Shown: piece after piece, positions 667 to 22,031 of the stretch
Numbering within the stretch: position 1 is the stretch's first letter
How the letters are laid out: every line of letters begins with the position of its first letter
Origin: Candidatus Wallbacteria bacterium
GTDB lineage: Bacteria > Muiribacteriota > UBA9980
Assembly: GCA_041441465.1 (NCBI GenBank)
Contig: JASDSY010000029.1
Span: 72,197-136,196 of the forward strand
Reading direction: 5' to 3'
DNA length: 64,000 nucleotides
Position numbers and translations under genes: made by a program
The notes under the pieces: generated by a model
What the model was told of the DNA's origin: nothing
Seen by the model: only the letters and a program-made list of their open reading frames with translations
Database searches by the model: none

Positions 667-710
667 TTATTTTGCATTATTGAAAAACCGCTTACATACC
701 CTTTAATAAA

Positions 711-981: not shown

Positions 982-1018
982 CCATGCATTGAAATAAAAT
1001 TGAAATGAGCTTATAAAT

Positions 1019-3503: not shown

Positions 3504-3535
3504 ATTGCAAATATTGAATAAGGGATGGTTCTTAA

Positions 3536-4387
3536 ATGATAGAAAGATTAAAAATGTTGAGCGAACTCGTTAAATTCGAGCACTCGATATTCGCTTTGCC
3601 GTTTGCATTTGCCGGAGCTTTAATCGCCGGTAACGGCAGCGTGAGTTTCATAAAGCTGTTCTGGATTTTTGTAGCCATGAACGGCGCGTATATTGCCGCT
3701 ATGGCTTTAAATAGAATTATAGACGAAGCGATTGATGCCCGCAATCCCCGCACAAGCGGCCGGGCGCTTCCGATGGGCGATATATCGCGTATGGGAGTCT
3801 GGCTTATCGTTATTATTTCGCTGGCGTCTTTTTTCTGGTCAGCTTACAGCCTGAACATTTCTTGTTTATATCTCGCGCCGGTCGCGTTAGTTCTTTTGAG
3901 CATTTATTCATATACGAAAAGATTTACGAGTTTATGTCATTTATATCTCGGATTTACACTCTCAGCGGCTCCGGTCGGCGCGTATATGGCAGTTACACCC
4001 GAATTTACGCTTATTCAAATGGTCCTTGCCTGGTGCGTGATGTTCTGGGTCGCCGGGTTTGATATTATTTACGCCTGCCAGGATATCGAGTTTGACAGAA
4101 GCAACGGAATACATTCGATTCCGGCGGTTCGCGGAATGTATGGTGCGCTTATTATTTCAAGGCTTATGCATTTTTTTACAATAGCGGGTTTTATCGTCGC
4201 CGGATTTTTAATAGCGGCCAGATATCCTTATTATATTGCCATCGCTATAAGTTCAGCACTTCTTGCGTATGAACATTCTCTTTTAAAAGACGGCAGCCTT
4301 GACAAGGTGGATATAGCGTTTTTCCAGGTTAACGGTTATGTGGCTGTTATTTTTATTGCAGGCGTAATGGCTAATTATTACTTATAA
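3536..4387 (+). CDS. ubiA: UbiA-family aromatic prenyltransferase, paralog 2 (tandem duplicate)
   Basis: 283 aa with the same architecture, NRIIDEAID motif, a second conserved block GFDIIYACQDIEFD and identical length. Confidence 0.85.
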   Translation: MIERLKMLSELVKFEHSIFALPFAFAGALIAGNGSVSFIKLFWIFVAMNGAYIAAMALNRIIDEAIDARNPRTSGRALPMGDISRMGVWLIVIISLASFFWSAYSLNISCLYLAPVALVLLSIYSYTKRFTSLCHLYLGFTLSAAPVGAYMAVTPEFTLIQMVLAWCVMFWVAGFDIIYACQDIEFDRSNGIHSIPAVRGMYGALIISRLMHFFTIAGFIVAGFLIAARYPYYIAIAISSALLAYEHSLLKDGSLDKVDIAFFQVNGYVAVIFIAGVMANYYL

Positions 4388-4615
4388 AAGTTTTTTATTT
4401 TTTATCTATTTTTAGAAATTAAGTTTATCCGCAACTAATTTTTGCTGATAATTATAAAATTGCCGTTCCGGTAAGCGAACTATAACATAACAAGGAAGCC
4501 TGAATTTTAATAATTTGAGAGCAATAAAAATTTTTTCAATTGTCAGATAATTTCAAGTTTATTTTAAATTTTATAACGGATTATTAGTAAATCGATATGA
4601 TATATTTGGTAGGTT

Positions 4616-5572
4616 ATGAATTCAACAGATAAAAATATTAACATCATTTCTAATGAGTTTTCGATGAAGGTCAAGGCTATGTTCGATCAAATTGCGCCGA
4701 CTTATGATTTTTTAAATCATTTCTTAAGCGTCGGTTTTGACATAATATGGCGGAAAAAATTTATTGGATATATATTTAAAATTATGCGGGCCGGCAGAAT
4801 TTATTGCGGACCGGCGGCGGGAATTTGCAGGAACGCCGGAACAAATGCTGAAACGAATACGGATGATCTTCAGACGCCCGGTAGCGTTAAAATAGCAGAT
4901 ATTGCGGCCGGCACCGGCGATTTAACGCTGGAAGCGATAAGATATATATGCAGGCGACTTGAAAATCAAGGCTGGCTTATAAAATTGGCGAATAAACTCA
5001 TGAATATAGATTCGCCGGGTTATGATAAAAAACCTGATATTGAATTTTATGCTTCAGATATTTCCTATGAAATGCTGAAAAAGGCTAAAGTTAAAATTAA
5101 CGAATATGAAAAATTAAACAAAAAATTAAGCGTCAATGGCCGTACCGGCATTAAAGTAAATTATGTGGTCTGCGATATTGCACGTCCGTGCTTTAAGAAA
5201 AACTCATTTGATATCGTTATGAGCGGATTCGGGTTAAGAAATTTTCCTGATGCGTCGGATTTTGCATTGAAATCAAATATCATGCTGAAAAAAAACGGAA
5301 TCAATGCAATACTTGAATTTACTAATTTTTCAGACAATAAATTATTTTTAGCTTTAAAAATTTACTATGAAAATTTCGTAAAATTAGCAGGTAATTTTTT
5401 TTCCGGGCACATTTTTGCGTATAACTATCTTGTAAATTCGATATTCGCTTTCAAATCCGACTGCCAGGTGAAAGATATATTTGAAAAAAGCGGCTATGCA
5501 TTAGTGTTTTACAGAAAATTATTTCCGCCGGTCACGTCAATTTATTACTTTAAGAAAATAACAGACAAGTAA
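4616..5572 (+). CDS. menG: UbiE/MenG-like SAM-dependent C-methyltransferase carrying two insertions
   Basis: [27 protein letters not shown] matches the UbiE/MenG N-terminal signature [35 protein letters not shown] is SAM motif I. Two inserts of ~30 and ~35 aa lie between the conserved blocks; the first is GC-rich at the DNA level. Confidence 0.65.
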   Translation: [318 protein letters not shown]

Positions 5573-5655
5573 TTATTGACTTTATTGATAAATTAAAATA
5601 TAATACATCCCATATATAAAATTATCCTGATATATTTATTATTATAAAGGGGCGT

Positions 5656-6249
5656 ATGATGAGAATAGTTGTCGCGCATACAGGGGCTTCAGGTTCAATA
5701 TACTGCTTGAAATTCTTGAAATGGCTTTCGCTGAAACGTGATGTGAAAGTGTCTTTTATCGCTTCGGCAGAAGGTTATAAAGTGCTTCAGCACGAGGCGC
5801 AATATACGAAAAATGATATTAAAAAATTAGTGCCGACAATTATTTCTAATAATGATTTATTCGCCGATATATCGTCCGGAACTGCCGGCGTGAACGCGAT
5901 GGTAATAGTTCCGGCAAGCATGAATACCATAGCCAAGATCGTTCACGGCGTTTCCGATACTTTAATCACGAGATGCGCTTCTAATATGCTTAAATTAAGG
6001 CGCAAGCTTATTGTTGTCGCGCGTGAAATGCCGCTTTCGACAATTCATCTTGAAAATTTAACGGCGCTTTCAAAAGCCGGAGCCGATATAATGCTAGCTG
6101 CGCCGCCTTTTTATAATCTTCCTAAAAACATAGACGAATTGACTCTTCCCGTTTTATATTACATAAACGAACTTCTCGGCCTTGAAAATAATATAAACTT
6201 CAAATGGCGCGGTGAAAGCATTGCGTCTGCTAAAGATGACGAAGATTAA
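5656..6249 (+). CDS. ubiX: UbiX-family flavin prenyltransferase (prFMN synthase, partner of UbiD)
   Basis: MRIVVAHTGASGSIYCLKFLKWL matches the UbiX/Pad1 N-terminus (IVGISGASGAIYG). It is ~195 aa and sits next to ubiD. Confidence 0.85.
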   Translation: MMRIVVAHTGASGSIYCLKFLKWLSLKRDVKVSFIASAEGYKVLQHEAQYTKNDIKKLVPTIISNNDLFADISSGTAGVNAMVIVPASMNTIAKIVHGVSDTLITRCASNMLKLRRKLIVVAREMPLSTIHLENLTALSKAGADIMLAAPPFYNLPKNIDELTLPVLYYINELLGLENNINFKWRGESIASAKDDED

Positions 6250-6344
6250 AAAAATTATGCTGATGCATCGGTAAAAATTCATTTTATGCGGATCGGCTTA
6301 TAAATTTTGCCAGATAGTTATTTGGAAAAATAAAAAAAAGATAA

Positions 6345-7409
6345 GTGAATATGACTTTAAGCAGTAAAACGTCAAATGTCTTAGAATTAAATAGCGGCTG
6401 GATTCGGCACCTTCTTGAAAGTAACGAAAAATCGTATCTTTCGAAGTTCGCTCAGTTATCGACGCATACGCGCGGACGTGAAAAAACAGAAGACGAATGT
6501 CTTTATAGAACCTGTTACCAGCGCGACCGCGATAAAATACTGCACGCAAAATCGTTTCGAAGATTAAAGGACAAAACGCAGGTTTATATCAGAAAAAGCA
6601 CTGACCATGTCCGTGTCCGCCTTACTCATACTCTTGAAGTAATGCAGGTGGCGCGTACTATCGCCAGGGCTTTGCGCTTGAACGAGGATCTTGTGGAAGC
6701 GATTTCGCTCGGCCATGATCTTGGCCATACCCCGTTCGGCCATACCGGCGAGGCGGTTTTAAATTCGCTTCTTCCGGGCGGGTTCCGGCATAGCATCCAG
6801 TCGCTGCGCGTGGTTGATAAGCTTGAAAAAAACGGCCACGGGCTTAATTTATGTTTTGAGGTGCGCGAAGGTATTTTAAAGCATTCGAAAACAAGAACGG
6901 GAATATTCAGCTCATTTGGCAATGATTTTCCGTCTACGCTCGAAGCGATGGTAGTGAAGATTTCAGACAGCATCGCTTACATTAATCATGATCTTGACGA
7001 TGCTATTTATTCGGGGCTTGTAAAGGAAGAACAGATCCCTGAAGAGGTATTTGAAACAATCGGAAGAACTAACGGCCACCGGATAAGTTCTATGGTGACC
7101 GATGTAATCGAGCAAAGCATGGATTTACCCGAAATAAAAATGTCCGATGAAATTTTAAATGTGACAAATTCATTAAGAGATTTTTTATTTGAAAATGTTT
7201 ATATGAAAGAAGATAATTTTGAAGAGGCGCGCGAAGCACGTAATATTATTAGTTTCCTGTTTGATTATTATGTAAAGCATAAAGATGCGCTGGTTAAGGA
7301 TATAGGCAGGTCTGTCGATGACATTCCGATCGAGGTGGCTGCAGCTGATTTAATCTCGTCGATGACCGATAATTACGCTTCAAAAAAATATGAATCCATA
7401 AGAAGTTAA
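6345..7409 (+). CDS. dGTP triphosphohydrolase-like HD-domain phosphohydrolase
   Basis: QRDRDKILHAKSFRRLKDKTQV and the HD motif LGHDLGHTPFGHTGE are diagnostic of the Dgt-like HD superfamily. Confidence 0.75.
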   Translation: MNMTLSSKTSNVLELNSGWIRHLLESNEKSYLSKFAQLSTHTRGREKTEDECLYRTCYQRDRDKILHAKSFRRLKDKTQVYIRKSTDHVRVRLTHTLEVMQVARTIARALRLNEDLVEAISLGHDLGHTPFGHTGEAVLNSLLPGGFRHSIQSLRVVDKLEKNGHGLNLCFEVREGILKHSKTRTGIFSSFGNDFPSTLEAMVVKISDSIAYINHDLDDAIYSGLVKEEQIPEEVFETIGRTNGHRISSMVTDVIEQSMDLPEIKMSDEILNVTNSLRDFLFENVYMKEDNFEEAREARNIISFLFDYYVKHKDALVKDIGRSVDDIPIEVAAADLISSMTDNYASKKYESIRS

Positions 7410-7423
7410 TATCTGGAGGAACC

Positions 7424-7912
7424 ATGAAAGTTTATTATCTGAAAAGTTCTAAAAAAACTAACAAACATGCTGACAGATACGCAAACGGACTTGCGTTTGT
7501 CGAGCTGGTGGTCACCATAACCATAATTGGAATTTTAGTTGCGGTGGCTGTTTTGAATTACGATAAAATAAAACAAGATATAAAAAAGAAAGCCTGCATC
7601 GCGAATATGTCGTCAATACACAGCGCTACAAGGCTTTTTTATATGGAAAACCCGATGTCGACAAATGAAAATGTTACGGTTTCTAAATTGCTTGAGCAAA
7701 ATTACCTTAAAACCGACCCGCAATGCCCGAATGCACAGGGATTGACTAAATCTGACGCTTTTTATGCGATCGAAGACAGCGTAGGAAAAAAAATTGATGT
7801 AAAATGCGTGAATATGAAGCACAGCGAATTAGCGCACGGCTCATTTTTAAAAATAACTACGCCTGTCAAACCCGGCGCTAACGAAACTAATTCCGGGTCA
7901 AATTCCAATTAA
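7424..7912 (+). CDS. Prepilin-type N-terminal cleavage/methylation-domain protein (type IV pilin or pseudopilin-like)
   Basis: ANG|LAFVELVVTITIIGILVAVAV fits the class III signal peptide (G|F/L..E plus a hydrophobic helix). The leader is unusually long (21 aa) and basic. Confidence 0.55.
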   Translation: MKVYYLKSSKKTNKHADRYANGLAFVELVVTITIIGILVAVAVLNYDKIKQDIKKKACIANMSSIHSATRLFYMENPMSTNENVTVSKLLEQNYLKTDPQCPNAQGLTKSDAFYAIEDSVGKKIDVKCVNMKHSELAHGSFLKITTPVKPGANETNSGSNSN

Positions 7913-8272
7913 AATTTATTTGCCGTGGTTTTATTGTGGCAGGTATATTAAACCCTTTTTTTGATTATTTAAATACGGGTTTTATACTTGAATTACATAA
8001 AGTGTTATTATGTTCGAGTTGAATTTTGTCTAATAATCAAAAAATAGATTCCGTTAAAAATTTAGAAAATTATATTAATTAAGCCGTTCAGGTTATATAT
8101 CAGATTATATAAAGGATTTACTATCTTAATTGGCCGGCAGGCTATTTAAAAAACTGTCGTATGCGATGCAGTTAAAGATAATATGAAATAGAATTATTAA
8201 ACAAATAATTACTCACTTTAGTAAGCGAGTATAAAAGGCTCTTTAAAATAATGAAAGAATGGTGGAGATTTT

Positions 8273-11200
8273 ATGAATAATCAGAAAAATCAAGTTTATT
8301 ACGAAATTTCACATGCTGAAAAAAGAATGTTCTATCTTCAAAAATTTTATAAAGATACGACGATGTGTAATATTCCGCATACCGTATTATTTGACAAACC
8401 TGTTGATTTTCCCTTGCTGAACAGAGCAATAAATATTTTTATAAAAAATAACCAGAACTTAAGAATACGCTTTTGCGAAATAAATGACGAGCCTAAACAG
8501 TATTTTTCTGATTTTTCTGAGACTAATTTTGAGATAATTAATTTTTCCGCTGCCGAGGCCATGGAAAAATGGGCCGCCGCGAAATCACTTGAAACATTTG
8601 GCGATTTATACGAAAAAGATTTGTATAAAATCGTTTTAATAAACTTAGGTGATAAACGCGGCGGTTTTTTTGTTAATTTCCACCATATAATTTTCGACGG
8701 TATGTCTTTCGCCTTCTTTACCGATAAAATTTATGAATATTACGGCAAATTGTTAAACAATGAAAATATACCTGAAGAAAAATTCACTTTATATTCAGAG
8801 TATTTAAAAGATGAAAATGCTTATCTTAATTCGAAATCGGCTCAGGACGATTTGAAATATTGGAAAAATATTTTCAGCACTGATGTCGAACAGCTGGAAC
8901 TGAAGCCCGGCGCTGATAATACGTCAATCGACATTAAAAGGAATTATCATCGCGTATCAAATGAATTGAATGATAAAATTTATAAGTATTGCTCGAAAAA
9001 TAACATTTCCGTTTATAAACTTTTTATGGCATGCCTTTATACCTACTACAATAGACTTACTCAAAAAGAAGACCTTGTTATTTCAACTACTCACCATAAC
9101 CGCTCTGAAGGTTTCAAAAAAACAACCGGAATGTTTATAAGCACATTGCCGCTTCGTTTGAAATTTTCGCCTGATATTACATTCAAAGAATTATTAACCC
9201 TTTATTTAAATGAATTTGACGAAATGATGAAGCATCAAAAATATCCTACTGATATGCTGATTTCTGAACTTAGAAATGAAAAGCGCGATATTGAAAATGT
9301 TTTCAATATAATGGCCGCAGCATATATCAAAAGCGATAATTCTAAAATTAACGTTAAGTCTTATGCTAATTCAAACTCCGTAAGCGCCGTGACCTATTTT
9401 ATATCCTACAATAATAAAGAAAAACTGCCTGTTGAATTAATGATCGATTACAAAACTTCAATTTACAATGAAAATGAAGCAAGCCTCATGGCCGGCCATA
9501 TTTTTAATATATTAAACGCGGTTACCGGCGATGATAATATAAAAATAAATAAAATAGACTTTTTAACCGATTCTGAAAAACGCCGTCTTATAAATGAATT
9601 CAATGATACGGCGGCATATTATCCCGCGGACAAAACCTTTATCGATATATTCGACGAACAGGTAATCAAAACGCCGAATAAAAAAGCCGTTGTTTACCTC
9701 GATAAATCATATACTTACCTCGAACTATATAACCGCGCTGAAAAACTTGCGCATAAGCTTCGGGGATTGGGCATAAAACGCGATGATATAGTTTCTATAT
9801 TCGTCGACCGTTCGCTCGAGATGTTCGTCGCGGCCGTCGGCGTTTTAAAAGCGGGCGGAGCTTTTATGCCGATAGATACGAAATACCCTGCAGATAGAAT
9901 AGAATTTATGCTCGCTGACAGCCAATCGCGAGTATTTTTGACGCAGAAACACCTTATCGAAAAAGCCAAGTTCGACGGCACGATAATTGACCTAGACGAC
10001 CAGTCGCTTTATTCGGCAGACTGCCCTAAAGTCAATAATGTCAATAAGCCCCAGGATCTTGCATATATAATTTATACATCGGGTTCGACCGGCAAGCCTA
10101 AGGGAACGATGATCGAACACGGTTCCCTGTTGAATTTTTCGTTCTGGTCCAAAAATTTTCATAATCTTACCGAAAATGACAATACTGCAAAACATGCGTC
10201 ATTCGGATTCGACGCTTCGATAGTCGAAGTTTTTCCGCCGCTTATCGCCGGCTGTGAAATTCATATCATCAGCGAAGATATTAAATTATCGCTTGTCGAA
10301 TTGAATGAGTATTTCGAAAAAAATAAAATCAGATACGCGTTTTTAACCACGCAGCTTGCCGAGCAATTTATGGAAAACATAGACAACAAATCATTAAGAT
10401 GGCTTGATACAGGCGGTGAAAAGTTAAGGACATTTAAGAAACGCGATTACCAGCTCGTGAATGTTTACGGCCCGACCGAGTGTACCGTATATACGACGGC
10501 ATTTCAGGTAAACAAAAATTATGAGAATATTCCTATAGGAAAACCTTTGAGCAACGCTAAAATATTCATAACCGACCGGTTCGGCAATTTGATGCCCGAA
10601 GGTTATTGCGGCGAATTATGTGTCGCCGGCGTCTGCCTGTCGCGCGGCTATTTAAACAGGCCTGAAACTACCGCCGAGAAATTTATTGAATGCCCGTTCA
10701 GTCCAAAAGAACGCATGTATAAAACCGGAGATTTGGTAAGATGGCTTCCGAACGGCGATATCGAATATATCGGCCGCATAGATAATCAGGTGAAATTACG
10801 CGGATTCAGGATAGAACTCGGCGAAATAGAACAGGAAATAATGAAGATTGACGGCATTAAAACATCGGCGGTTACCGTTATATCCGAGGGCGACAACAAG
10901 CTCTTATGCGCGTATATAGTTTCGGAAAGTAAAATAAGCGACGACGTCATAAAAAATACTCTGACTGCGACGCTTCCTGAATTCATGATCCCGAGCTATA
11001 TAGTAAGGCTTGAAACTATGCCGGTTAACGCGAGCGGCAAAATCGACAGGAAAGCGCTTCCTGCGCCTAATATTAAAATCGAAACGCAGAGCGCCTATGT
11101 CGCTGCGGAAGGCGAAATTGAGACAAGGCTTTTAAAAATGTGGAAGGAAACCCTCGGCATTGAAAATTTCGGTGTTTGCGACAATTTCTTTAAAATCGGC

Positions 11201-14200
11201 GGACACTCGCTTAAAGCAGTCATGCTGCAGGCTAAAATCGAGCGTGACTTTGGGGTAAGGGTGCCGGTAAGGAAAATATTCGAAGCGGCCACGATAAGAC
11301 TGCAGGCTGAATTGATAAAAGCTGAAAAATCCGGGACATCGAATATTGATCTTGAAAGACTTGCCGCCGAACAGTCATCAGGCAAAAAAGTTATTGAACG
11401 CGGCATGGCTTCTGTTTATATAGAGCCGGCCACGAACACTGAAAAAGCGCTTATTAAAATATGGGAAGAACTCTTAAATGTAGACGGCGTCGGAACAGGC
11501 GATAACTTCTTTTCGATAGGCGGGCATTCAATAAAAGCCGTTACAATGCAATATAAAATCGAGAAGGAGTTTAAAGCCAGAATCCCTGTTAAAGATATTT
11601 TCAAAGCGCCTACAATAAGAGAGCTCGCGGTGTTAATAGACGGCGCCGAAAAAGTTAGCGCGATTGAAACAAGCGTATCTTTGGGCGATAAAAATTATTA
11701 TCCGTCTTCCTCTGTACAGAAGCGACTGTTTATGATTGAACAGAAAGACGGTTCATCGACGACATATAATATTCCTATGGCAATGAGAATAAAGGGCAGG
11801 CTTGACGACTCCAGGTTGAGCGACTCCATCGAAAAGATGATAGAGCGTCATGAAGCGCTGCGTACGTCATTCGCGATGATCGACGGCGAGCCCATGATAA
11901 AAATAAATAAGGACGTCAAACTGAAGAAAATATATCAAAAGGCTGAAGAAAGCGAACTGGGCGATATAATGAAGGATTTCCTCAAGCCGTTCGACCTGAC
12001 TAAAGCGCCTTTATTTAGAATCAAACTCGTTAAAATTTCCGATGAAAATCACGTGCTTTTGATAGACGTTCACCATATAATATTCGACGGAATGTCTCTT
12101 GAGATATTCATGAAGGAACTTTTTGAAATATATTCGGGCCAGACGCTTCCGGCGCTCGAGTATCAATATAAAGATTTTGTGGCGTGGCAGCAGAAATATC
12201 TTAAATCAAACAAGATGATCGAGCAGGAAAAAGCATGGCTCGAGATGTTAAGCGGCGAGCTTCCTGTTTTGAATATGCCGACTGATCATGCGAGAACGGC
12301 CGAACCAGGCCTTGCCGGCGCGCAGTATGATTTCTTTATCGAGCACGAACTTTCGTCGAAACTTAAAAATTACGCTAATAAGACGCAATCTACTCTTTAT
12401 ATGGTGTTTTTGAGCGCGTTGAATATAATGCTTTCGAAATATTGTTCGCAGGAAGATATAATAGTCGGCAGCCCTCTTCTAGGCCGGCCTACCATAGAGT
12501 CGCAGCAGATGCTCGGCATGTTTGTAAACACAATGCCGGTGCGTAATTATCCTAAACCGGACAAGAAAGCGAACGAGTTCATCGACGAAGTAAAACGCAA
12601 CTTTTTTAACGTTATCGATAATCAGGATTATCAGCTTGACACGCTTATAGAAAAACTGAATATTAAGCGTGAATCGTCGCGTAATCCGTTATTTGACGTT
12701 ATATTCGTATTCCAGACTTCGCAGGGCATCAAAGATACGCGTTACGGCGATATTATGGTAAGCCCCGGCACTATCGAAACGGGAACGGCCAAATTCGACC
12801 TTTCGCTGCAGGCTTATGAAGCCGGCGATTATATTAAGTGCATGCTCGAATACCGCTGCAGCCTTTTCGAGCCGGACACAATCAAGCGTATGTCGATGCA
12901 CCTTTCAAATATTCTCGAGCAGATAGCGGATAATCCCGAAATTGCATTGAAAGATATAGAATTGATAACCGATTCCGAAAAGAAGACGGTTTTATATGAA
13001 TTTAACATGAACGATATGGATTATCCGAAAGATAAGACTGTCCATGAGCTTTTCGAAGTTAATGCCGAATTATATCCGGACAGGGGCGCGGTCGTTTATA
13101 AGGATAAGAAATATACATATCGTGAATTGAATGAACGCGCCAACATGCTGGCCCGCTGCCTTATTAAAAACGGCGTGAAGCCGCGCGGGTTCGTTGCGCT
13201 TATAAGCGAAAAATCAGCCGAAGTAGCCCTTTGCGCTCTCGCGATTCAAAAAGCCGGTGCGTGCTATGTGCCTATCGATCCGTCATATCCGCAGGATAGG
13301 ATCGAATATATGCTCGGCGATACCGCTTCTAATGTAGTGCTGTGCCAGAAGGAATTAATTGATAAAGTGCCTTTTAACGGCGTTAAAATCAATATTGACG
13401 ATGAGTCCATTTATTCAGGCGCTTCTGATGAACGGAAAAATCTTGACATTAAAGTCAACCCGGAGGATTTATCATATCTTATATATACTTCGGGCTCTAC
13501 CGGAAAGCCTAAAGGCGTTATGATAGAGCATCGTTCGATTATAAACCTTTGCTGGTGGGAAATAAATAAATATAAGCTTACACATGAGGATAAAATAACA
13601 CAATATGTTTCAATATGCTTCGATCCGTCGGTAGGCTGCGAGATGTTTTTGAGCCTGCTTGCCGGCGCCGAGCTGCATGTTGTCGCCCCTGAATTGAGAA
13701 TGGACCCTGTTAAACTCAATGAATATATGGAAAAAAATAAGGTGACATTCTCTATTTTACCTACGCAATTTTATGAACAATTCAGCGAATTGACTGATAA
13801 TAAATCGCTTCGTTATTTGATGGTTGGCGGCGAAAAGCTTAAAGCGTATAAAAAAGCTAATTATAAACTTATCAACGCTTACGGTCCGACTGAATATACC
13901 GTCGTTACAACGGCTTTCAATGTCGAAAAGGACTATGAAAATATTCCGATAGGTTCCGGCGTCGCAAATTCAAGGCTTTATGTTCTTGATAAATATAATA
14001 AACTTATGCCGGTCGGTGTTTACGGCGAATTGTGCATAAGCGGCGACGGCCTTGCGCGCGGCTACCTTAACAGGCCTGAACTTAATTCCGAAAAATTTCC
14101 GGCTGACCCGTTTTTAGAAGGCAAGAAAATGTATAGAACCGGCGATCTTGTAAGATGGCTTCCTGACGGGAATATTGAATTTAACGGGCGAATAGATTTC

Positions 14201-16429
14201 CAGGTTAAAATAAGGGGATTCAGGATAGAAATCGGCGAAATCGAGGCTCAGATGCAAAAACACGAGCAAATCGAGGCTGTGCTCGTGCTCGCCAAGGAAG
14301 ATGAATCCAAAAATAAATATTTGTGCGCGTTCTATTCGTCGAATGAAGAAATACCTAATTCGGATTTAAAGGCGTTTCTTGCTAAATCGCTCGCTAATTA
14401 TATGATTCCGTCATTTTTTGTGTGGGTAAAGGATATGCCGATCAATTCCAGCGGCAAAATCGACCGCAAGACTCTCGAAAAACTTGAAATTAAAAAGCCG
14501 GTTGAAGTTAAAGTCGATCCGCAGAATGAAAAGGAAGAAAAAATCGCCAGGGTCTGGCGCGAGGTATTAAATATTCAAAAGATCGGCATTAATGAAAATT
14601 TCTTTGAAATAGGCGGCCACTCTTTGAAAGCGGTTGCTGCGGTCGCTAAAATGCAAAATGATTTTGACGTTACGATTAACGATATTTTCAAATACCAGAC
14701 AATATTTGCGCTTGCCGCTAATTTAAAGGATAAGAAAGGTAGTCTTTCAGGAAAACTTGCTGAGATCAAGGCTAAGTCGGCGGAAATATCCAAAAAATCC
14801 GCTGAATTTATGGAATCAAAATGGTATCTTGATTTTGTTAAACAATATCAGGAAAAAAATAAGAAATACGAAAAAATTGATATCCATAAAAGAAAAAACT
14901 ATAAAGCTGTTTTATTGACAGGTGCTACAGGCTACCTTGGCGTATATTTGCTGCACGATTTGCTGAAATATTATAAATGCGATATTTATGTTCCGGTAAG
15001 AGGCAAGACCGACGGCGACTCTTTGAGAAGGCTTAACGAAAAATACCGTTACTATTTTAATTCGGAATTGACCGCCGCGCAGCTTGAACGGGTTAAGGTA
15101 ATATGCTGTTCGGAACTGCAGGATGAAAACCTCGGAATAGATAAAGCAATTTATGATAAATTAGTGGATACCGTCGACTGCGTAATTAATCCGGCCGCAA
15201 ACGTTAAACATTACGGCCGCTATGAGGAATTTTACGCGCCGAATGTCGGGGCTGTGGCAAATCTTGTTAAATTCGCGGCGTCAGGCATCAAAAAAGACCT
15301 GCATCATGTATCGACTGCTTCTGTGGCCAGCGGTTATATCGAAGGTACGGATTTTTCCGCGTTCTGCGAAGATACCTGCAATGTCGGCCAGAAATCTGAC
15401 AACCTTTATATAATTACGAAATTAATGGCCGAGGAGCTGGTCATTAAAGCGCGCGCCGAATTTGGCATTAACACGAACATATACAGGGTCGGCAATATCT
15501 CGTTTAATTCTGAAACAGGGCATTTGCAACAAAATGTCGAGGAAAACGCCTTCAGCACCATGGTCAAGTCGTTCGTCAACCTGGGCGTTGTACCGCAATC
15601 AGATGACATGGCCGAACTTTCGTTCGTAGATAAGACGAGCGCCGCAATTTTAGTTTTATTCGATAAGGCGAACCTTTTGAACGAGACTTATCACATTCAT
15701 AATTCAAAGCCTGTTAAGCTTTCCGATATATTGACTTCAAAAAAACTGGGCCTGTCCGTCGAAGCCGTCCCGTTGGAAACATTTATCGACAGACTTGGCG
15801 AGCTCGATAAAAAAGAATGCTTCAGGCAGCATGTTCAGAATTTCATGCTTCACCGCGGCTGGCTTTCGGAGTCTGGGCCTGAAACGCAGTTCGCTCTGCA
15901 TTCCGAACGTACGTTCATGCTCTTAAAAATGCTCGGCTTCGAGTGGCCTGAGCTTGACGAGATGAAACTTATCCAATTAATAACAATGTCGCTTAAGGAC
16001 AGAATAAAATTCATAATGGATTCGGAATTATTCAATAACATTCCATACACCGTACAGCGTGAGCTGGCATTCATTTCAAGGGAATTGGCGGTCGACGAAA
16101 ACGATACGCTGATATGGGAAGATAATGAATGCGAGAATATGTATATGATTGTCGACGGCGTCGCTGAAATCCAGAAAAGTTCAAAAAGCGGATGGGTTGG
16201 CACTATTATGGTCGCATCTGCCGGCGATGTCATCGGACTTGAAGCGCTGCTTGATAAAAAATCAGGAACGACGGCGGAAGCTATTATGGGCGATTTGACA
16301 ATACTAGCTTTTGATAAGAAAAAAATTAACTCGATATTAAAAACGGCGCCTGAACTTTGCTACAACCTGTTTAAGTTCGCTAACGCGCAGAGCGGAAGAA
16401 TGGCGGGAATGATCGCGAACTTCGCTTAA
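8273..16429 (+). CDS. Bimodular nonribosomal peptide synthetase: C-A-T-T / C-A-T-R plus a C-terminal cNMP-binding-like domain
   Basis: 2718 aa. C1 HHIIFDG at nt 8681-8700. A1 core LAYIIYTSGSTGKPKG at nt 10058-10105. PCP1 FFKIGGHSLKA at nt 11186 and PCP2 FFSIGGHSIKA at nt 11507. C2 HHIIFDG at nt 12071. A2 LSYLIYTSGSTGKPKG at nt 13469. PCP3 FFEIGGHSLKA at nt 14600. Thioester-reductase Rossmann motif LLTGATGYLGVYLL at ~nt 14911. Crp-like beta-roll (YMIVDGVAEI...AGDVIGLEALL) at ~nt 16040-16400. SD-like ggtggag lies upstream of the ATG. Confidence 0.95.
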   Translation: MNNQKNQVYYEISHAEKRMFYLQKFYKDTTMCNIPHTVLFDKPVDFPLLNRAINIFIKNNQNLRIRFCEINDEPKQYFSDFSETNFEIINFSAAEAMEKWAAAKSLETFGDLYEKDLYKIVLINLGDKRGGFFVNFHHIIFDGMSFAFFTDKIYEYYGKLLNNENIPEEKFTLYSEYLKDENAYLNSKSAQDDLKYWKNIFSTDVEQLELKPGADNTSIDIKRNYHRVSNELNDKIYKYCSKNNISVYKLFMACLYTYYNRLTQKEDLVISTTHHNRSEGFKKTTGMFISTLPLRLKFSPDITFKELLTLYLNEFDEMMKHQKYPTDMLISELRNEKRDIENVFNIMAAAYIKSDNSKINVKSYANSNSVSAVTYFISYNNKEKLPVELMIDYKTSIYNENEASLMAGHIFNILNAVTGDDNIKINKIDFLTDSEKRRLINEFNDTAAYYPADKTFIDIFDEQVIKTPNKKAVVYLDKSYTYLELYNRAEKLAHKLRGLGIKRDDIVSIFVDRSLEMFVAAVGVLKAGGAFMPIDTKYPADRIEFMLADSQSRVFLTQKHLIEKAKFDGTIIDLDDQSLYSADCPKVNNVNKPQDLAYIIYTSGSTGKPKGTMIEHGSLLNFSFWSKNFHNLTENDNTAKHASFGFDASIVEVFPPLIAGCEIHIISEDIKLSLVELNEYFEKNKIRYAFLTTQLAEQFMENIDNKSLRWLDTGGEKLRTFKKRDYQLVNVYGPTECTVYTTAFQVNKNYENIPIGKPLSNAKIFITDRFGNLMPEGYCGELCVAGVCLSRGYLNRPETTAEKFIECPFSPKERMYKTGDLVRWLPNGDIEYIGRIDNQVKLRGFRIELGEIEQEIMKIDGIKTSAVTVISEGDNKLLCAYIVSESKISDDVIKNTLTATLPEFMIPSYIVRLETMPVNASGKIDRKALPAPNIKIETQSAYVAAEGEIETRLLKMWKETLGIENFGVCDNFFKIGGHSLKAVMLQAKIERDFGVRVPVRKIFEAATIRLQAELIKAEKSGTSNIDLERLAAEQSSGKKVIERGMASVYIEPATNTEKALIKIWEELLNVDGVGTGDNFFSIGGHSIKAVTMQYKIEKEFKARIPVKDIFKAPTIRELAVLIDGAEKVSAIETSVSLGDKNYYPSSSVQKRLFMIEQKDGSSTTYNIPMAMRIKGRLDDSRLSDSIEKMIERHEALRTSFAMIDGEPMIKINKDVKLKKIYQKAEESELGDIMKDFLKPFDLTKAPLFRIKLVKISDENHVLLIDVHHIIFDGMSLEIFMKELFEIYSGQTLPALEYQYKDFVAWQQKYLKSNKMIEQEKAWLEMLSGELPVLNMPTDHARTAEPGLAGAQYDFFIEHELSSKLKNYANKTQSTLYMVFLSALNIMLSKYCSQEDIIVGSPLLGRPTIESQQMLGMFVNTMPVRNYPKPDKKANEFIDEVKRNFFNVIDNQDYQLDTLIEKLNIKRESSRNPLFDVIFVFQTSQGIKDTRYGDIMVSPGTIETGTAKFDLSLQAYEAGDYIKCMLEYRCSLFEPDTIKRMSMHLSNILEQIADNPEIALKDIELITDSEKKTVLYEFNMNDMDYPKDKTVHELFEVNAELYPDRGAVVYKDKKYTYRELNERANMLARCLIKNGVKPRGFVALISEKSAEVALCALAIQKAGACYVPIDPSYPQDRIEYMLGDTASNVVLCQKELIDKVPFNGVKINIDDESIYSGASDERKNLDIKVNPEDLSYLIYTSGSTGKPKGVMIEHRSIINLCWWEINKYKLTHEDKITQYVSICFDPSVGCEMFLSLLAGAELHVVAPELRMDPVKLNEYMEKNKVTFSILPTQFYEQFSELTDNKSLRYLMVGGEKLKAYKKANYKLINAYGPTEYTVVTTAFNVEKDYENIPIGSGVANSRLYVLDKYNKLMPVGVYGELCISGDGLARGYLNRPELNSEKFPADPFLEGKKMYRTGDLVRWLPDGNIEFNGRIDFQVKIRGFRIEIGEIEAQMQKHEQIEAVLVLAKEDESKNKYLCAFYSSNEEIPNSDLKAFLAKSLANYMIPSFFVWVKDMPINSSGKIDRKTLEKLEIKKPVEVKVDPQNEKEEKIARVWREVLNIQKIGINENFFEIGGHSLKAVAAVAKMQNDFDVTINDIFKYQTIFALAANLKDKKGSLSGKLAEIKAKSAEISKKSAEFMESKWYLDFVKQYQEKNKKYEKIDIHKRKNYKAVLLTGATGYLGVYLLHDLLKYYKCDIYVPVRGKTDGDSLRRLNEKYRYYFNSELTAAQLERVKVICCSELQDENLGIDKAIYDKLVDTVDCVINPAANVKHYGRYEEFYAPNVGAVANLVKFAASGIKKDLHHVSTASVASGYIEGTDFSAFCEDTCNVGQKSDNLYIITKLMAEELVIKARAEFGINTNIYRVGNISFNSETGHLQQNVEENAFSTMVKSFVNLGVVPQSDDMAELSFVDKTSAAILVLFDKANLLNETYHIHNSKPVKLSDILTSKKLGLSVEAVPLETFIDRLGELDKKECFRQHVQNFMLHRGWLSESGPETQFALHSERTFMLLKMLGFEWPELDEMKLIQLITMSLKDRIKFIMDSELFNNIPYTVQRELAFISRELAVDENDTLIWEDNECENMYMIVDGVAEIQKSSKSGWVGTIMVASAGDVIGLEALLDKKSGTTAEAIMGDLTILAFDKKKINSILKTAPELCYNLFKFANAQSGRMAGMIANFA

Positions 16430-16464
16430 ATAATTTCGGGTGCGATCGAATAATCGAATGATAT

Positions 16465-16510
16465 AAAACGGCTGGAATTTTATAATTAATAGGATTCCAG
16501 CCGTTTTTAC
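16465..16510 (+). terminator. Rho-independent terminator after the NRPS gene
   Basis: cggctggaat...attccagccg hairpin followed by tttttac. Confidence 0.6.
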
Positions 16511-16751
16511 TTTTAATATCAATAACTTAATTTCACACCTTAAAAGTGTATGTGAGTAATGATTTTAAAAATTAATAAAATTTAGTTTTTAGCATTTGAC
16601 TTCAAAATCAATCGTAAATATGCTGGTTAAAAAATATAGATTGATGTAATAATAATAATAATGGTTTCGCTATGCCAAACTTAAGTCGATAAGTTGAACT
16701 AATTATTGCATATTTCGAAAAATTGATTATTATCTTATATACATGTTCATA

Positions 16752-17462
16752 TTATAAAAATTGCAGCTTTTCTAAATCTATATAATTGATTTCGTATGAT
16801 ATATTTTGATTGCCGCAGGCGCAAAGCGCCGCTTTATAGCCTTTAAAATCGTTTATTCGCTTGAAATTGCAGTTGGTATTAAAACCCATTTGGCACGAAA
16901 CTTTTATGCTGTCATCGTTAAAGTCTAAGACAAATTTTGTAGGTTCGAGTGATAAGCCGGTGCCAAGGTATTTTATGTAACTTTCTTTAAGTGTCCATAA
17001 TTCATAAAAGTAATCGATTTGGGAATTTTTGGGAATGCTCTTGAATCTTTCGCATTCTTCCGGTGAAAAATAACTGCCGTTCATACTTAAATCGACAGGT
17101 TCTATTTTTTCTATGTCGATGCCCACTTCACTATCATAAAAAGCTAGTAAAACAAAATCTCCGGAATGTGAAATATTAAAGTAAAAATCATTACGGCCCT
17201 TTAAATAGACTTTTCCATTGGCATTTTTTTCTAACTCAACATTAAGCGGGCCGATATTCAGATTTTTCATAAGAGAATGCTTTAATAATAATATCGCGCC
17301 AATCGAGCGCAATGAATCGGCCTCGAACCTGAATGAATTAACTTTCATTTTTTCATCGCGGTTTAAAATACCGGAATAAAGGCCGAGAAGATGGCTGATC
17401 GAATTATTTTTTATGCATGCTGCGTATATTTTGATGCCGGTCATGGTCAAAATATAACACAA
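16752..17462 (-). CDS. Sfp-type 4'-phosphopantetheinyl transferase
   Basis: Motifs GKVYLKG...FNISHSGDFVLLAF and VGIDIEKIE fit PPTase motifs (GKP / FNxSHS / GxDxE). The true start may be the internal Met at 17444. The gene sits next to the NRPS. Confidence 0.75.
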   Translation of the reverse strand: MCYILTMTGIKIYAACIKNNSISHLLGLYSGILNRDEKMKVNSFRFEADSLRSIGAILLLKHSLMKNLNIGPLNVELEKNANGKVYLKGRNDFYFNISHSGDFVLLAFYDSEVGIDIEKIEPVDLSMNGSYFSPEECERFKSIPKNSQIDYFYELWTLKESYIKYLGTGLSLEPTKFVLDFNDDSIKVSCQMGFNTNCNFKRINDFKGYKAALCACGNQNISYEINYIDLEKLQFL

Positions 17463-17544: not shown

Positions 17545-20223
17545 ATGCAAAAGCTACCAATTATTATTCCGGAGTACTATAAATTAAGCAATGGATTTTC
17601 AATCTGCCTGTGCGGCAATTTTCCTTATAAATCCTCGCAAATATCGGTTTTATTTTTGTCTAAATGCGGGCTTTATTCAGAAACTCCTGAAAAGGCCGGA
17701 ATTACACATGCTCTTGAACATATGCTGTTTAAAGGCACGAAAAAACACAGCAATTTTGAATTTATGGCCGAAATTAACTCTCTGGGCTCGTCAGTTGACG
17801 CTTTTACAGCCGCCGATTCAATGTGTATCGAACTTATGTCGCCGGCTGATAATTTCGAAAAATCATTTTCACTATTTTCAGATTTGATCTTAAACCCGGT
17901 ATTCCCTGAAAAAGAAGTCGAGCTTGAAAAGAAAGTTGTAATAAATGAAATTCTTTTTTATGAGGATGATCCTGAAGATTTGCTGACGCTGCGCCTCGAA
18001 AGTGAATGTTTCAAAGGGACATGTTATCAAAATCCAATACTTGGAACGCGAAACAGTGTTAATTCGTTGACACGCGAAGAATTTCAAAAATATCATAAAG
18101 ATTATTTCACTCCGGAAAATTGCATGATGACTGTTATCGGCGATTTTAACGAACCTGAAATGGCCGGATTTATCGAGAAGTTTTTCGGCGAAAAAAAATG
18201 GAAACGTTCAAAGACCGGCCCTAAATATTTTAATTTAACAAATATAAACGATAAACCGACGCACAGCGTTATAAAAAGACTTGATAAGTTTTCACAAAAT
18301 TATCTCGGCTTCTCATTTGTGCTGCCGCCCTCGATCGCCGGAATTGATTCGTCGGCCATGATTTTGCCTTATGTGTTCAGCTCATTGAAATCATCGCCGC
18401 TCGGCTTTTTACTGCGCGAAAAAAATAATATCGTAAATGCTTTTAGCGCCGATTTGATATTTAAGCAGGGCGCATGGATGATGTCTCTTATCGCTTCGTG
18501 TGAGCCGCGTTATATGAATAAGGTTAAAAATATTATTCTTAATTTTATAAAAAGAGCTTCGTCGCTTGTTTCCAGAGAATTATTCGAAAGCGCCAGGAAT
18601 TTAATATTGCTCGATTACTTTCAGGAAATCGAGACTGCTAAGAATTATTGCAATGAACTTACCACATTTAACCATATAATCGGCGAAACTTCCTATAACA
18701 AATCTATCGAAAATCTTCTTAAAATATCATACGAAGATTTTCTTGATTATCTTTCTAAATATGTTGAACCGGCAGTTTTACATTTTGTCGAAATAATTTC
18801 GAAAGAAGTAAATTCATTTAAACACAATGCGGAATACATAAAACTTAAAAATCCTGACTTGGGCAAAGCTAACGCCGCAAATTTCGGATATGAAAATTCA
18901 TTCTATAAATTAAAAAAATATAACCCTAAATTATCTGCGGATGTTTCATGCAATACGGATAATCCGGCAAGACCTATTATCTCAACCATAGATACATCAT
19001 TGTTGTACTCAACCCTTAATATGTGGATCGAGGGCGGTGTCATAGCCTCACAAATACCCGGAGACGCTTATATTTTTAGCGAATTATTCGGCAAAAAAAC
19101 TCACTTATTGTCAAGTTATGATAATTTTATAAAAAATGACTATCTCGGCATATATTATGACTGCAACATATTTCTTGATTATGTCCTTATAGAAGCCGTC
19201 TGCCCTGGTAAATTTACCGGCGATAAAATAAAAAGGCTCGATGAATTTCTAAATGATTTTGATTTTACAGGCGATATGCTGAAAAAAGCCAAGCAGGTCG
19301 TTAAACGTTCAGTTGCAGGCGTTTATGACGATGTGTTCGAATATCCGTTCTGGAATTTCATTAAAATCCTTTTCGAAGGTAAATGCTATTCAAAATCAAT
19401 ATTCGGTAATGAAAAGTTTTTGTCTGAAATCAACGCGGAAAACGTTATTAATTATTATAACAACCTCAAAAACAGCTCGTCGAGATATTGCATTTCATAT
19501 TCAGCGGCCGTAAATTCAGCCGAAATTATAAAAAATAATCTTTCTTATATTAATTTATCAAGCCGGCGTCCGTTAGATATAAATCCCAATATGCAGGGCG
19601 GCAAATTAATTAACGGCTGTTCCAATATATTCAATAAATTTGATAAAAACGCTTTTTTAAACTCCGGTATCGGCGGCAAAACCATTGAAATAAAGTCAAG
19701 GCAGCAGCAGGCTACCGTTTTAATAGGCGGTTACGCTCCTGAAATCGCTAACGGCGATTCATTGGCTTTTTCTATAGCTAATTATATACTCGCCGATTAT
19801 ACCGGTAAAAGATTATGGGATCTGCGTGAATCCCACGGCCTGTGCTACAACATATTTTCTGAATATATTCCGTTGGCATACTCCGGCGTGTTTTTTTGCT
19901 ATGCCAATACCGACATAAATAAACTTGGTACCGTCGCCGAAAAAATATGCTGCGAACTAGATAAGTATTGCGCTGACGGCCCTACCGAAAAGGAAGTGGC
20001 TGAAGCTAAAATGCAGCTTATAAAGAAGATGGAGCTGGGGCTTAATTCGAGTGCCAGCCTGTCAAAAGCTGCCGGTAGTTCCATATTTTACGGCAAAACG
20101 CTGAGTGAATTCCTTGAATATAAAAAACGTATCGAAAGCGTTGAAGTGAATAAAATCAACGCGGTCATAAGAAAATACATGTCACCAAAAAAATTGCTTA
20201 CTTTAAGGGTTTTGACTTCATAA
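17545..20223 (+). CDS. Two-unit M16-family zinc metallopeptidase (pitrilysin-like; inverted zincin HxxEH)
   Basis: 892 aa. The inverted zinc motif GITHALEHMLFKG lies near residue 56, and the length fits a fused active plus inactive M16 unit. Confidence 0.8.
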   Translation: MQKLPIIIPEYYKLSNGFSICLCGNFPYKSSQISVLFLSKCGLYSETPEKAGITHALEHMLFKGTKKHSNFEFMAEINSLGSSVDAFTAADSMCIELMSPADNFEKSFSLFSDLILNPVFPEKEVELEKKVVINEILFYEDDPEDLLTLRLESECFKGTCYQNPILGTRNSVNSLTREEFQKYHKDYFTPENCMMTVIGDFNEPEMAGFIEKFFGEKKWKRSKTGPKYFNLTNINDKPTHSVIKRLDKFSQNYLGFSFVLPPSIAGIDSSAMILPYVFSSLKSSPLGFLLREKNNIVNAFSADLIFKQGAWMMSLIASCEPRYMNKVKNIILNFIKRASSLVSRELFESARNLILLDYFQEIETAKNYCNELTTFNHIIGETSYNKSIENLLKISYEDFLDYLSKYVEPAVLHFVEIISKEVNSFKHNAEYIKLKNPDLGKANAANFGYENSFYKLKKYNPKLSADVSCNTDNPARPIISTIDTSLLYSTLNMWIEGGVIASQIPGDAYIFSELFGKKTHLLSSYDNFIKNDYLGIYYDCNIFLDYVLIEAVCPGKFTGDKIKRLDEFLNDFDFTGDMLKKAKQVVKRSVAGVYDDVFEYPFWNFIKILFEGKCYSKSIFGNEKFLSEINAENVINYYNNLKNSSSRYCISYSAAVNSAEIIKNNLSYINLSSRRPLDINPNMQGGKLINGCSNIFNKFDKNAFLNSGIGGKTIEIKSRQQQATVLIGGYAPEIANGDSLAFSIANYILADYTGKRLWDLRESHGLCYNIFSEYIPLAYSGVFFCYANTDINKLGTVAEKICCELDKYCADGPTEKEVAEAKMQLIKKMELGLNSSASLSKAAGSSIFYGKTLSEFLEYKKRIESVEVNKINAVIRKYMSPKKLLTLRVLTS

Positions 20224-20812: not shown

Positions 20813-21385
20813 TTATTTTTTTAATATTTCGTTAAGGTTAATTTTCCCTGACGGCGAGTAAAAAGAATAAGAAATTAATGTCGGTGCGTCACTTAGTTCT
20901 TCTATTGTGATAGATTCCGTGAGTGCTCTCCTGTTTGAGCATATATTGGCAGATATATTCAAGAAATCTGAAATTTTGATATTTTTGATGTTCAACGTGC
21001 CGCTTAATGATTCCATAAAAGCGAAAGTTTTGATTCCGTAAGTTAATTCATAATCAGGTACGGCGGTTACTTTTTGAATTATTTCCCTGATATTTCGCTG
21101 CTTTATTTCGATAGTCTCGGTCGAAGCATTTTTTGAAACCGTGTCTGAAATGATATTTATGTCTTTTAATAGATTTTGTTTTTCGCTGTTTAATGCGCCG
21201 GCTTTTGTTTCAGCCTCTTGAGCGCGGCTTTCGAGCGATTGTGCGGCCTGCTTTAATGACGCCGCATCGCTTCTTTGCGGAAGCACGACTATTATTCTGA
21301 AAAAACCGACAAGCAGAAGGATAAAGGTGTTTATCGCGATTATATAAATGATTTTATTTTGAATGCTATCGTTCAAATATTTCAT
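20813..21385 (-). CDS. pilO: PilO-like type IV pilus inner-membrane assembly protein
   Basis: 190 aa with a single N-terminal TM helix then a coiled-coil region. It is the last gene of the pilC-B-M-N-O order. The sequence assignment is weak and rests on context. Confidence 0.45.
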   Translation of the reverse strand: MKYLNDSIQNKIIYIIAINTFILLLVGFFRIIVVLPQRSDAASLKQAAQSLESRAQEAETKAGALNSEKQNLLKDINIISDTVSKNASTETIEIKQRNIREIIQKVTAVPDYELTYGIKTFAFMESLSGTLNIKNIKISDFLNISANICSNRRALTESITIEELSDAPTLISYSFYSPSGKINLNEILKK

Positions 21386-22031
21386 CCCCTTTGATTTTAA
21401 TGATTACGCGCGCAGAAACGCCGTTAAGATTTGATCCTGAGGCTGCCGGAGTGTTTGTTCTGGTTTCGGCGTATTCGTTATTTATGAAAACGCTTTCGAC
21501 CCATTTTATTTTTTTGAGCTGCTCAATAAATGCTGAAAGAGCGTTCATATTTTTAACTGTTATAAAAAAGCTGCCCGTTAAGCTGCCGAAGTTAATGTTG
21601 AAATTTTTAACGCTCAATATTTCAGGAATATTCCTGCGTATCTTCAGAATGTCGTTAACTATTTCCGTATCGTTTGTTTTGCGGCTTGTCAGTGAACTTT
21701 GCGAATTTTTCAGGCTTTCTTTAAGTTTAGATATTTTTGTCTTTACCTCGTCGCTTATTGCTATCTCGGCGCTTTCGCCTGAAAACATTCCGCCAGCCCT
21801 GACAGTATTATTTTTTAGCGCCTTTTCATGCTGGTTTATTTTTGACTGCAGCGCTGAAATTTTTAAATTCGCGTCGTAAATTTCGCCTTTATAATCGTAA
21901 TAACTATACATCGAAAATATGAAATAGAGGAACGGAATAATTGAAATACCGTATTTAACGGCTTTGAATGACAATGAATTTTCATTCATTGCCGGCCTGG
22001 CAATTTTAAAATCCATTTTTATGCTTTTCAT
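21366..22031 (-). CDS. pilN: PilN-like type IV pilus inner-membrane assembly protein
   Basis: 221 aa with a TM helix (ISIIPFLYFIFSMY) plus coiled coil, downstream of pilM. It overlaps pilO by 20 nt. Confidence 0.45.
   Translation of the reverse strand: MKSIKMDFKIARPAMNENSLSFKAVKYGISIIPFLYFIFSMYSYYDYKGEIYDANLKISALQSKINQHEKALKNNTVRAGGMFSGESAEIAISDEVKTKISKLKESLKNSQSSLTSRKTNDTEIVNDILKIRRNIPEILSVKNFNINFGSLTGSFFITVKNMNALSAFIEQLKKIKWVESVFINNEYAETRTNTPAASGSNLNGVSARVIIKIKGDEIFER

Follow-up and report, generated by a model that had tools for sequence, protein, structure and literature searches.

Small nonribosomal peptide synthetases (NRPSs) that end in a thioester reductase (R) domain are well known, and the control of NRPS output is usually placed at the level of transcription. 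Gut-bacterial NRPSs of the pyrazinone or dipeptide aldehyde family of Guo et al. 2017 reportedly share one order of condensation (C), adenylation (A) and carrier (T) domains, C-A-T-C-A-T-R, and the ruminopeptin synthetase rup of Ruminococcus bromii, ascribed to Schneider et al., is said to belong to the same group. The dipeptide aldehydes of gut-bacterial NRPSs have been isolated in the form of pyrazinones, to which they cyclise and oxidise without the help of an enzyme (PMC12327764). The subject of this work is an NRPS gene on a 64,000-nucleotide stretch of DNA from Candidatus Wallbacteria bacterium (contig JASDSY010000029.1, positions 72,197 to 136,196), the whole of which was analysed and is referred to here as the window. 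Like the dipeptide-aldehyde NRPSs of gut and rumen, the window NRPS is bimodular and has a terminal R domain of the short-chain dehydrogenase/reductase (SDR) type, with a gene for a phosphopantetheinyl transferase (PPTase) adjacent, as is often the case in those systems. It differs from them in that module 1 has one carrier domain more and that the protein ends in a domain with a cyclic nucleotide-binding (CNB) fold; the host of the window is a diderm candidate phylum and not Firmicutes. The gene and its two terminal domains are located as follows.

8273..16429, + strand: NRPS gene, 2718 aa, C-A-T-T-C-A-T-R-CNB (open reading frame (ORF) list, Pfam and motifs)
14888..15982, + strand: terminal thioester reductase domain R, TGATGYLG at aa 2216, Thr2348/Tyr2379/Lys2383 (NAD_binding_4, E=1e-45)
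15992..16426, + strand: C-terminal CNB-fold domain, aa ~2574-2718, without the phosphate-binding Arg (Pfam, PDB matches and AlphaFold2 (AF2) model)

On balance, we favour the interpretation that this bimodular NRPS and the PPTase release an N-acyl dipeptide reductively and that the CNB domain couples a signal to the release. Confidence is higher for the NRPS core of this interpretation, and the regulatory role of the CNB domain is put forward tentatively.

The locus is a real and intact two-module NRPS. An original prediction, made from the sequence of the window, had described a single 2718-aa ORF with two complete modules and HHIIFDG motifs at nucleotides 8681 and 12071; the ORF list and Pfam agree, and the motifs were found at exactly these coordinates, at aa 137 and 1267. 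The domain string that it gave, C-A-T-T-C-A-T-R, is correct in order and incomplete, as the CNB domain follows R. The Pfam content of the protein is two Condensation, two AMP-binding (with AMP-binding_C), three PP-binding and one NAD_binding_4 domain, and a Shine-Dalgarno-like sequence, GGTGGAG, lies 5' of the ATG. An identical protein is recorded as NCBI MEZ7892622.1 (Candidatus Wallbacteria metagenome-assembled genome (MAG), 138.7-kb contig) and was also present on a separate Logan assembly contig from run SRR24078314, while a protein of the same length and 98.5% identity (P0061) was found on a different Logan contig. A 2733-aa counterpart of identical architecture, with 42-72% identity per domain, is encoded in locus L006 (uncultured bacterium), where it adjoins a PPTase gene and a PilC gene. 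Because the gene recurs in independent assemblies and has its counterpart in L006, it is not an assembly chimera, an outcome that had been left open when the gene was first described.

The R domain carries YIITK at aa 2379, and both GxxGxxG and the Thr/Tyr/Lys triad were invariant over 23 aligned homologues (T149, Y180 and K184 in alignment A3). Among the relatives retrieved for R were R domains from Clostridia, Bacteroidales and Methanobrevibacter, at ~28-35% identity to that of the window. An AF2 model of R and CNB together (519 residues) had a predicted local distance difference test score (pLDDT) of 91.6 and a predicted TM-score (pTM) of 0.88, and its top Foldseek matches were the R domain of MxaA, the T-R structure of an archaeal NRPS and the R domain of AusA. 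The predicted ending in an SDR-type thioester reductase was thus borne out by NAD_binding_4, TGATGYLG and the R fold, and the inactive R domain that had been envisaged as a difficulty was not encountered, the nucleotide motif and the Thr/Tyr/Lys triad both being intact. R is predicted to be an NAD(P)H-dependent reductive release domain with intact catalytic motifs.

The tail that follows R was matched by the Pfam family cNMP_binding (PF00027) at aa 2607-2691 with 37.8 bits, the gathering score being 27.5, and its best PDB sequence matches were the effector domains of Crp/Fnr proteins. Modelled alone with AF2, the tail had a pLDDT of 88.9 and a query-normalised TM-score (TMq) of up to 0.89 to the effector domains of GlxR and M. 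tuberculosis CRP; N-terminal helices, a beta-barrel and a 25-residue C-helix all fell within the GlxR/CRP superposition. The pTM of 0.88 in the joint model, taken by itself, suggests that R and CNB are held in one defined mutual arrangement. The Foldseek matches of that model included no solved structure spanning both R and CNB. In comparison with L006, no part of the NRPS is less conserved than the CNB domain (42% identity).

When the window CNB domain was aligned to the regulatory subunit of protein kinase A (PKA-R) and to CRP, Ser was found at the place of the phosphate-binding Arg and Leu at that of the ribose-contacting Glu (G-L-E vs G-E-L). Arg was present neither at this position of the phosphate-binding cassette (PBC) nor at the adjacent one in any of 47 family tails, which have Ser, Ala or another residue instead. 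The family motif at the PBC is P-S-x-[VI]-[TS]-A-[EQ]-A, with the Ser in 33 and the Glu in 38 of the 47 tails, and is preceded by G-W-x-G-T in the hairpin; the canonical CNB matches in the same profile search show P-R-T-A-T-V, and some members of the CNB family retain the Gly-Glu of the PBC. In the window protein the motif reads KSGTTAEA, with Ser2665 and Glu2670, and the hairpin segment SGWVGT, with Trp2640. As the phosphate-binding Arg is absent from all 47 tails, the domain is unlikely to bind cAMP or cGMP. The tail has a CNB fold, yet it should not be filed as a receptor of cyclic nucleoside monophosphates (cNMPs).

The Arg-less motif was also seen outside NRPSs that end in R-CNB. It is present in HEAT-repeat-CNB proteins of ~1010 aa (P0137, P0164, P0172, P0176 and P0154), in stand-alone CNB proteins of ~150 aa (P0066 and P0142) and in a 645-aa protein, P0128, in which CNB follows a lone condensation domain. 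The recurrence of the same motif in these HEAT-CNB, stand-alone and C-CNB proteins argues that the Arg-less CNB domain is a distinct, portable sensing or interaction module.

To follow the fusion among relatives, a profile of the tail was searched against 1.84 billion cluster representatives and the best 150 were examined; the clusters are drawn at 50% identity and the R-CNB count is a lower bound. An R-CNB ending was found in 33 of these 150 representatives, besides P0002, P0005 and P0006, making at least 36 clusters. Most have the architecture C-A-T-C-A-T-R-CNB, and the remainder include A-T-R-CNB, C-A-T-R-CNB and three- and four-module forms (a range of 1-4 modules); short R-CNB entries also occurred among the matches and are possibly fragments. 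Six metagenomic proteins span R and CNB at 36-56% identity, and the fusion as a whole is conserved among relatives at 36-57% identity. Full R-CNB matches came from MAGs labelled UBP16, Vulcanimicrobiota, Desulfobacteraceae and Synergistetes and from two labelled 'uncultured bacterium', while a Desulfovibrionaceae locus matched only through query residue 472 of 519. With Wallbacteria included, R-CNB was found under five or more different taxon labels. In L001, R-CNB is encoded as a gene of its own directly 3' of the NRPS gene, and R-CNB therefore behaves as a single evolutionary unit.

Several related loci have features of their own around R-CNB. L007 (UBP16 MAG UBA6123; 83-13410 and 13548-15023) has two tandem NRPSs, each ending in R-CNB; the second seems truncated only through a single frameshift near nt 13108, which may be an assembly error or mark a pseudogene. 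This pair is followed by an alpha-2-macroglobulin (A2M)-like gene, and in L005 (1837-4323) R-CNB is likewise followed by A2M. Partner-switching genes, encoding a STAS anti-sigma antagonist, an RsbW-like HATPase_c_2 kinase and Cache/HAMP-SpoIIE phosphatases, were found directly 3' of the R-CNB NRPS in L001 (7392-10036), L003 (3276-7369) and L040 (11493-13283). Exporters of the major facilitator superfamily (MFS) or MatE type accompany several of the R-CNB NRPSs.

The synthetic domains that precede R in the window NRPS are as follows.

8273..9607, + strand: C1, N-terminal condensation domain in the starter position (aa 1-445), HHIIFDG at aa 137 (Pfam and motif)
9638..11122, + strand: adenylation domain A1, specificity residues DAVFLTVVYK, register set manually (Pfam and motifs)
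11123..11662, + strand: tandem carriers T1 (aa 951-1030) and T2 (aa 1056-1130), GGHSL at aa 976 and GGHSI at aa 1083 (PP-binding)
11678..13012, + strand: C2, condensation domain for elongation, LCL-like, with HHIIFDG at aa 1267 (match to the TycC PCP-C structure 2jgp, 365 bits)
13043..14527, + strand: adenylation domain A2, specificity residues DP[G/C]ILVAVVK (Pfam and motifs)
14528..14767, + strand: carrier domain T3, GGHSL at aa 2114 (Pfam and motif)

The Pfam Condensation match (E=2e-185) covers two stretches. By its sequence C2 is clearly LCL-like. C1 is divergent from the solved C domains: the top match, at 96 bits, was the LCL domain of TycC (2jgp), and the solved starter C domains gave 36-56 bits, RzmA and CDA (calcium-dependent antibiotic) accounting for the range of 52-56 bits. 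Every C domain in the large ORFs of 85 related loci was also typed by its better match to the C1 or the C2 of the window, which is a local comparison and not a reference phylogeny. The C1-like type was found in 21 of the 38 N-terminal C domains and in none of the 45 internal ones, all 45 of which were C2-like. This restriction of C1-like domains to N-termini supports a starter class for C1. No NRPS gene lies upstream, the genes 5' of the NRPS encoding an HD-domain protein and a pseudopilin-like protein. From its position, C1 is most likely a starter domain with N-acylation. That C1 might prove not to be of the starter type had been named as a hazard; the domain was found to be N-terminal, with an intact HHxxxDG, and of a kind that is only N-terminal in the relatives. 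The predicted N-acyl dipeptide aldehyde or alcohol stands with respect to the reductive-release NRPS core, whereas the acylation is suggested by domain position: the N-terminal C1 with its intact HHxxxDG speaks for it, and the weak similarity to starter C domains and the lack of an acyl-activating or acyl carrier protein (ACP) gene nearby speak against it.

A step in GC content was noted within the NRPS gene at the C1/A1 boundary (8273-9650 vs 9650-16426). C1 has a GC content of 31% (third codon positions (GC3), 32%), and the remaining domains have 38-45% (GC3 40-52%); C1 also belongs to the parts that are conserved least in comparison with L006, at 50% identity. In the relatives, C1 differs from the rest in the same direction and by less (2-7 points), so part of the step is probably amino-acid composition. 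It could be due in part to composition and in part to a swap of the starter domain or a mosaic origin.

Both A domains have complete core motifs A3, A5, A7, A8 and A10 (TSGSTGKPKG, NxYGPTE, YxTGD, GRxDxQVKxRGxRIE and GKIDR). The partial specificity residues of the original prediction, FDASIVEV for A1 and FDPSVGCE for A2, were recovered as FDASIVE at aa 646 and FDPSVGCE at aa 1783. An automatic pairwise alignment of the A domains to a GrsA-PheA fragment placed gaps inconsistently and was not used. The register was instead counted between the anchors FDxS, GGE and NxYGPTE against the GrsA fragment, and the resulting codes are provisional; the range of the match to 1amu (query 2-110 vs chain 229-340) fits a 3-residue deletion past the GGE motif. 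The A1 specificity segment was closest to the A domain of LgrA module 1 (105 bits). Since the codes are provisional and match none that is known to us, nothing finer than 'hydrophobic' is predicted for A1 and A2. Both pockets are lined by hydrophobic residues, which makes amino acids 1 and 2 probably aliphatic or hydrophobic. T1 and T2 are 53% identical and each has its Ser motif. Tandem carriers in module 1 are common to the close relatives L006 and L007, and more distant C-A-T-C-A-T-R-CNB members are without them.

Downstream of the NRPS gene, three further features were located.

16465..16507, + strand: strong hairpin terminator, 19-bp stem and T run, 36 nt past the NRPS stop, in the interval where the NRPS and PPTase genes converge
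16752..17462, - strand: Sfp-type 4'-phosphopantetheinyl transferase, 236 aa as longest ORF (AASDHPPT_N at aa 32-107 and ACPS at aa 113-214)
17545..20223, + strand: M16 peptidase, 892 aa, HALEH (HxxEH) at aa 55 (Peptidase_M16 and M16_C)

The Sfp-type PPTase that had been placed immediately downstream on the opposite strand was confirmed by ACPS and AASDHPPT_N, and is convergent with the NRPS. Its start is uncertain, the Logan gene call being of 186 aa (16752..17312) and the longest ORF of 236 aa. PPTase homologues adjoin the NRPS in 14 of the 85 related loci, of which L006 is one. The adjacent M16 peptidase is likewise present as described, at 892 aa and with HALEH, but not as a conserved partner of the cluster: when the 85 related loci, L006 included, were searched by tblastn with the M16 of the window, none gave a match. 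M16 is therefore not counted in the cluster and is probably a bystander.

The flanks of the window contain menaquinone-type UbiD/UbiA/UbiE/UbiX genes and genes for an HD-domain protein and a pseudopilin-like protein, together with type IV pilus genes, a secretin, GatA/GatB, Dus and CoaX, and the context of the NRPS is an ordinary chromosome of a diderm. The host had been judged to be AT-rich and possibly uncultivated; the GC content of the whole window is 36.6%, and Candidatus Wallbacteria is an uncultivated lineage. Two neighbouring 283-aa paralogues of the UbiA prenyltransferase family, at 2652-3503 and 3536-4387, belong to the UbiD/UbiE/UbiX group just 5' of the NRPS. A HAMP-GAF-GGDEF diguanylate cyclase at 44389-46167, ~28 kb from the NRPS and with no evident link to CNB, was the sole nucleotide-second-messenger gene seen in the window. 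ORFs with no Pfam match, all on the - strand, were present at 34919-36322 (467 aa), 31022-31855 (277 aa) and 21366-22031 (221 aa), and at the right end of the window (62001-64000) GC drops to 27.6%. No A2M gene was found within the window.

In the interpretation that we favour, the NRPS and the Sfp-type PPTase would form a self-contained biosynthetic unit of two genes, in which the PPTase would prime the three carrier domains. A1 would load amino acid 1 on T1/T2, and C1 would acylate it with an acyl-CoA or acyl-ACP as donor; as there is no acyl-activating or ACP gene nearby, this donor would come from primary metabolism. C2 would then couple the acylated amino acid 1 to amino acid 2, loaded on T3 by A2, and R would use NAD(P)H to release the acyl-dipeptidyl thioester reductively. 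A reduction by 2 electrons would give an aldehyde and one by 4 electrons an alcohol, the latter being less likely. The product is probably a short dipeptide that is acylated and ends in an aldehyde or alcohol group; if N-acylated, it would be unable to cyclise to a pyrazinone. The CNB domain would act as a regulatory module linking a signal to chain release, the signal being a small molecule other than cAMP or cGMP, or a partner protein. A more specific version, which we hold to be possible but doubtful, makes R-CNB an in-cis post-translational switch that turns reductive release on and off: the Arg-less CNB domain would sense a small molecule or dock a signalling protein of the STAS/RsbW/SpoIIE type, and its N-terminal helices would relay the signal to the subdomain of R that binds the substrate.

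Several observations weigh against the favoured interpretation. The AF2 input alignment held just 7 sequences over the CNB part, and the long C-helix in the model fits a pure dimerisation role equally well; no STAS, RsbW, SpoIIE or MFS genes were found within the window. With respect to the product, C1 is nearer to the solved LCL domain (96 bits) than to starter C domains of known structure (52-56 bits), and genes for a fatty acyl-AMP ligase (FAAL), an ACP or an acyl-CoA ligase were not found near the NRPS in the window flanks. Position 239 of A2 is ambiguous (G/C) owing to a 1-aa insertion, and we know of no recorded specificity code that equals that of either A domain.

The dimerising helix leads to the suggestion that the CNB fold is a ligand-free structural element, with a C-helix that dimerises or scaffolds the synthetase and with nothing sensed. 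The 25-residue length of the helix, the best superposition being on the dimeric effector domains of CRP and GlxR, the lost cNMP-contact residues and the lowest conservation in the protein against L006 are all consistent with this. However, the PBC-like segment holds a conserved motif of its own (Ser and Glu at the frequencies given above, with GWxGT), suggesting selection on the pocket region, and the domain belongs to the same subfamily as the stand-alone ~150-aa proteins and the HEAT-repeat fusions; a purely structural CNB domain is considered rather unlikely. The loss of the contact residues is also what makes it very unlikely that the domain is a true receptor of cAMP or cGMP through which the level of a second messenger gates release. 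The Pfam match does exceed the gathering score, the fold agrees with that of CNB domains with bound cAMP or cGMP and the Gly-Glu of the PBC is retained in some family members, but the phosphate-binding Arg is missing in 47 of 47 tails, the window protein is without the Glu as well (G-L-E for G-E-L), the conserved Glu within the PBC-like motif would disfavour phosphate, and no cyclase gene adjoins the NRPS.

Two further alternatives concern the product and its neighbourhood. C1 may be inactive, or use a non-acyl donor, such that a free dipeptide aldehyde would be released and proceed to a dihydropyrazinone or pyrazinone; the isolation of gut-bacterial dipeptide aldehydes as pyrazinones (PMC12327764) would agree with this, as would the missing acyl-activating gene and the weak resemblance of C1 to solved starter C domains. 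We find it improbable, given that HHIIFDG is intact, that C1-like domains are kept at the N-termini of related NRPSs and are never internal, and that the conservation of a 445-aa domain argues for function. The last alternative places the M16 peptidase in the pathway, as a target-like self-resistance protein or as a processing enzyme for a protease-inhibitor product. The gene lies 82 bp from the PPTase gene, is divergent from it and by sequence has an active HxxEH motif, and the A2M-like genes beside the NRPS in L005 and L007 are another protease-related theme; but with a homologue in none of the 85 related loci, the closest, L006, included, and with a terminator and an opposite-strand gene between M16 and the NRPS, its chance of being right appears slighter than that of any other alternative considered.

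The literature searched, the coverage of which was incomplete, yielded no description of an NRPS-CNB fusion, the matches concerning separate Crp-type regulators, encapsulins and geosmin loci. A conserved sensor-fold domain on R suggests that product release is controlled at the level of the enzyme. If the switch is true, this would be, as far as we know, the first NRPS with chain release gated by an embedded sensor domain, and it would assign a class of ligand to an orphan subfamily of CNB domains that is widespread and of which HEAT-repeat proteins and a terminal C domain are further fusion partners; if CNB is merely structural, the locus is one more small R-terminated NRPS. The 145-aa CNB domain gives a concrete, testable handle on the proposed control of release, and the locus points to a family of small reduced peptides made by uncultivated anaerobes, these peptides being plausibly aldehydes that react with proteases.

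Comparison with solved and characterised proteins separates the familiar parts of the locus from the new one. At the N-terminus, surfactin SrfAA, C1 of CDA PS1 (4jn3) and the starter C domain of RzmA (7c1h) have, like the window NRPS, a C domain with an intact HHxxxDG before the first A domain; C1 of the window differs from these lipoinitiation domains in that its scores to them, 36-56 bits, are below its LCL score, and in that no dedicated acyl-activation genes lie near its gene. The R domains of MxaA (4w4t/4u7w), the archaeal NRPS T-R (6vtj) and AusA (4f6c) share the fold of the window R (E=1e-20 to 1e-25, target-normalised TM-score (TMt) 0.67-0.81), the NAD(P)H motif and the Thr/Tyr/Lys triad, at a sequence identity of 21-28%. 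These solved R proteins have no domain after R, and their alignments span ~380 of the 519 modelled residues. The CNB domain shares its fold with GlxR (3r6s, 4cyd), M. tuberculosis CRP (3mzh, 4a2u) and the Deinococcus Crp/Fnr protein 3e97, at TMq 0.78-0.89; unlike the CRP/FNR proteins, it has no DNA-binding domain, is fused to an enzyme and has both the Arg and the Glu of the PBC replaced. The NRPS core is ordinary, and the new and unexpected part is the conserved fusion of a release domain with a sensor fold.

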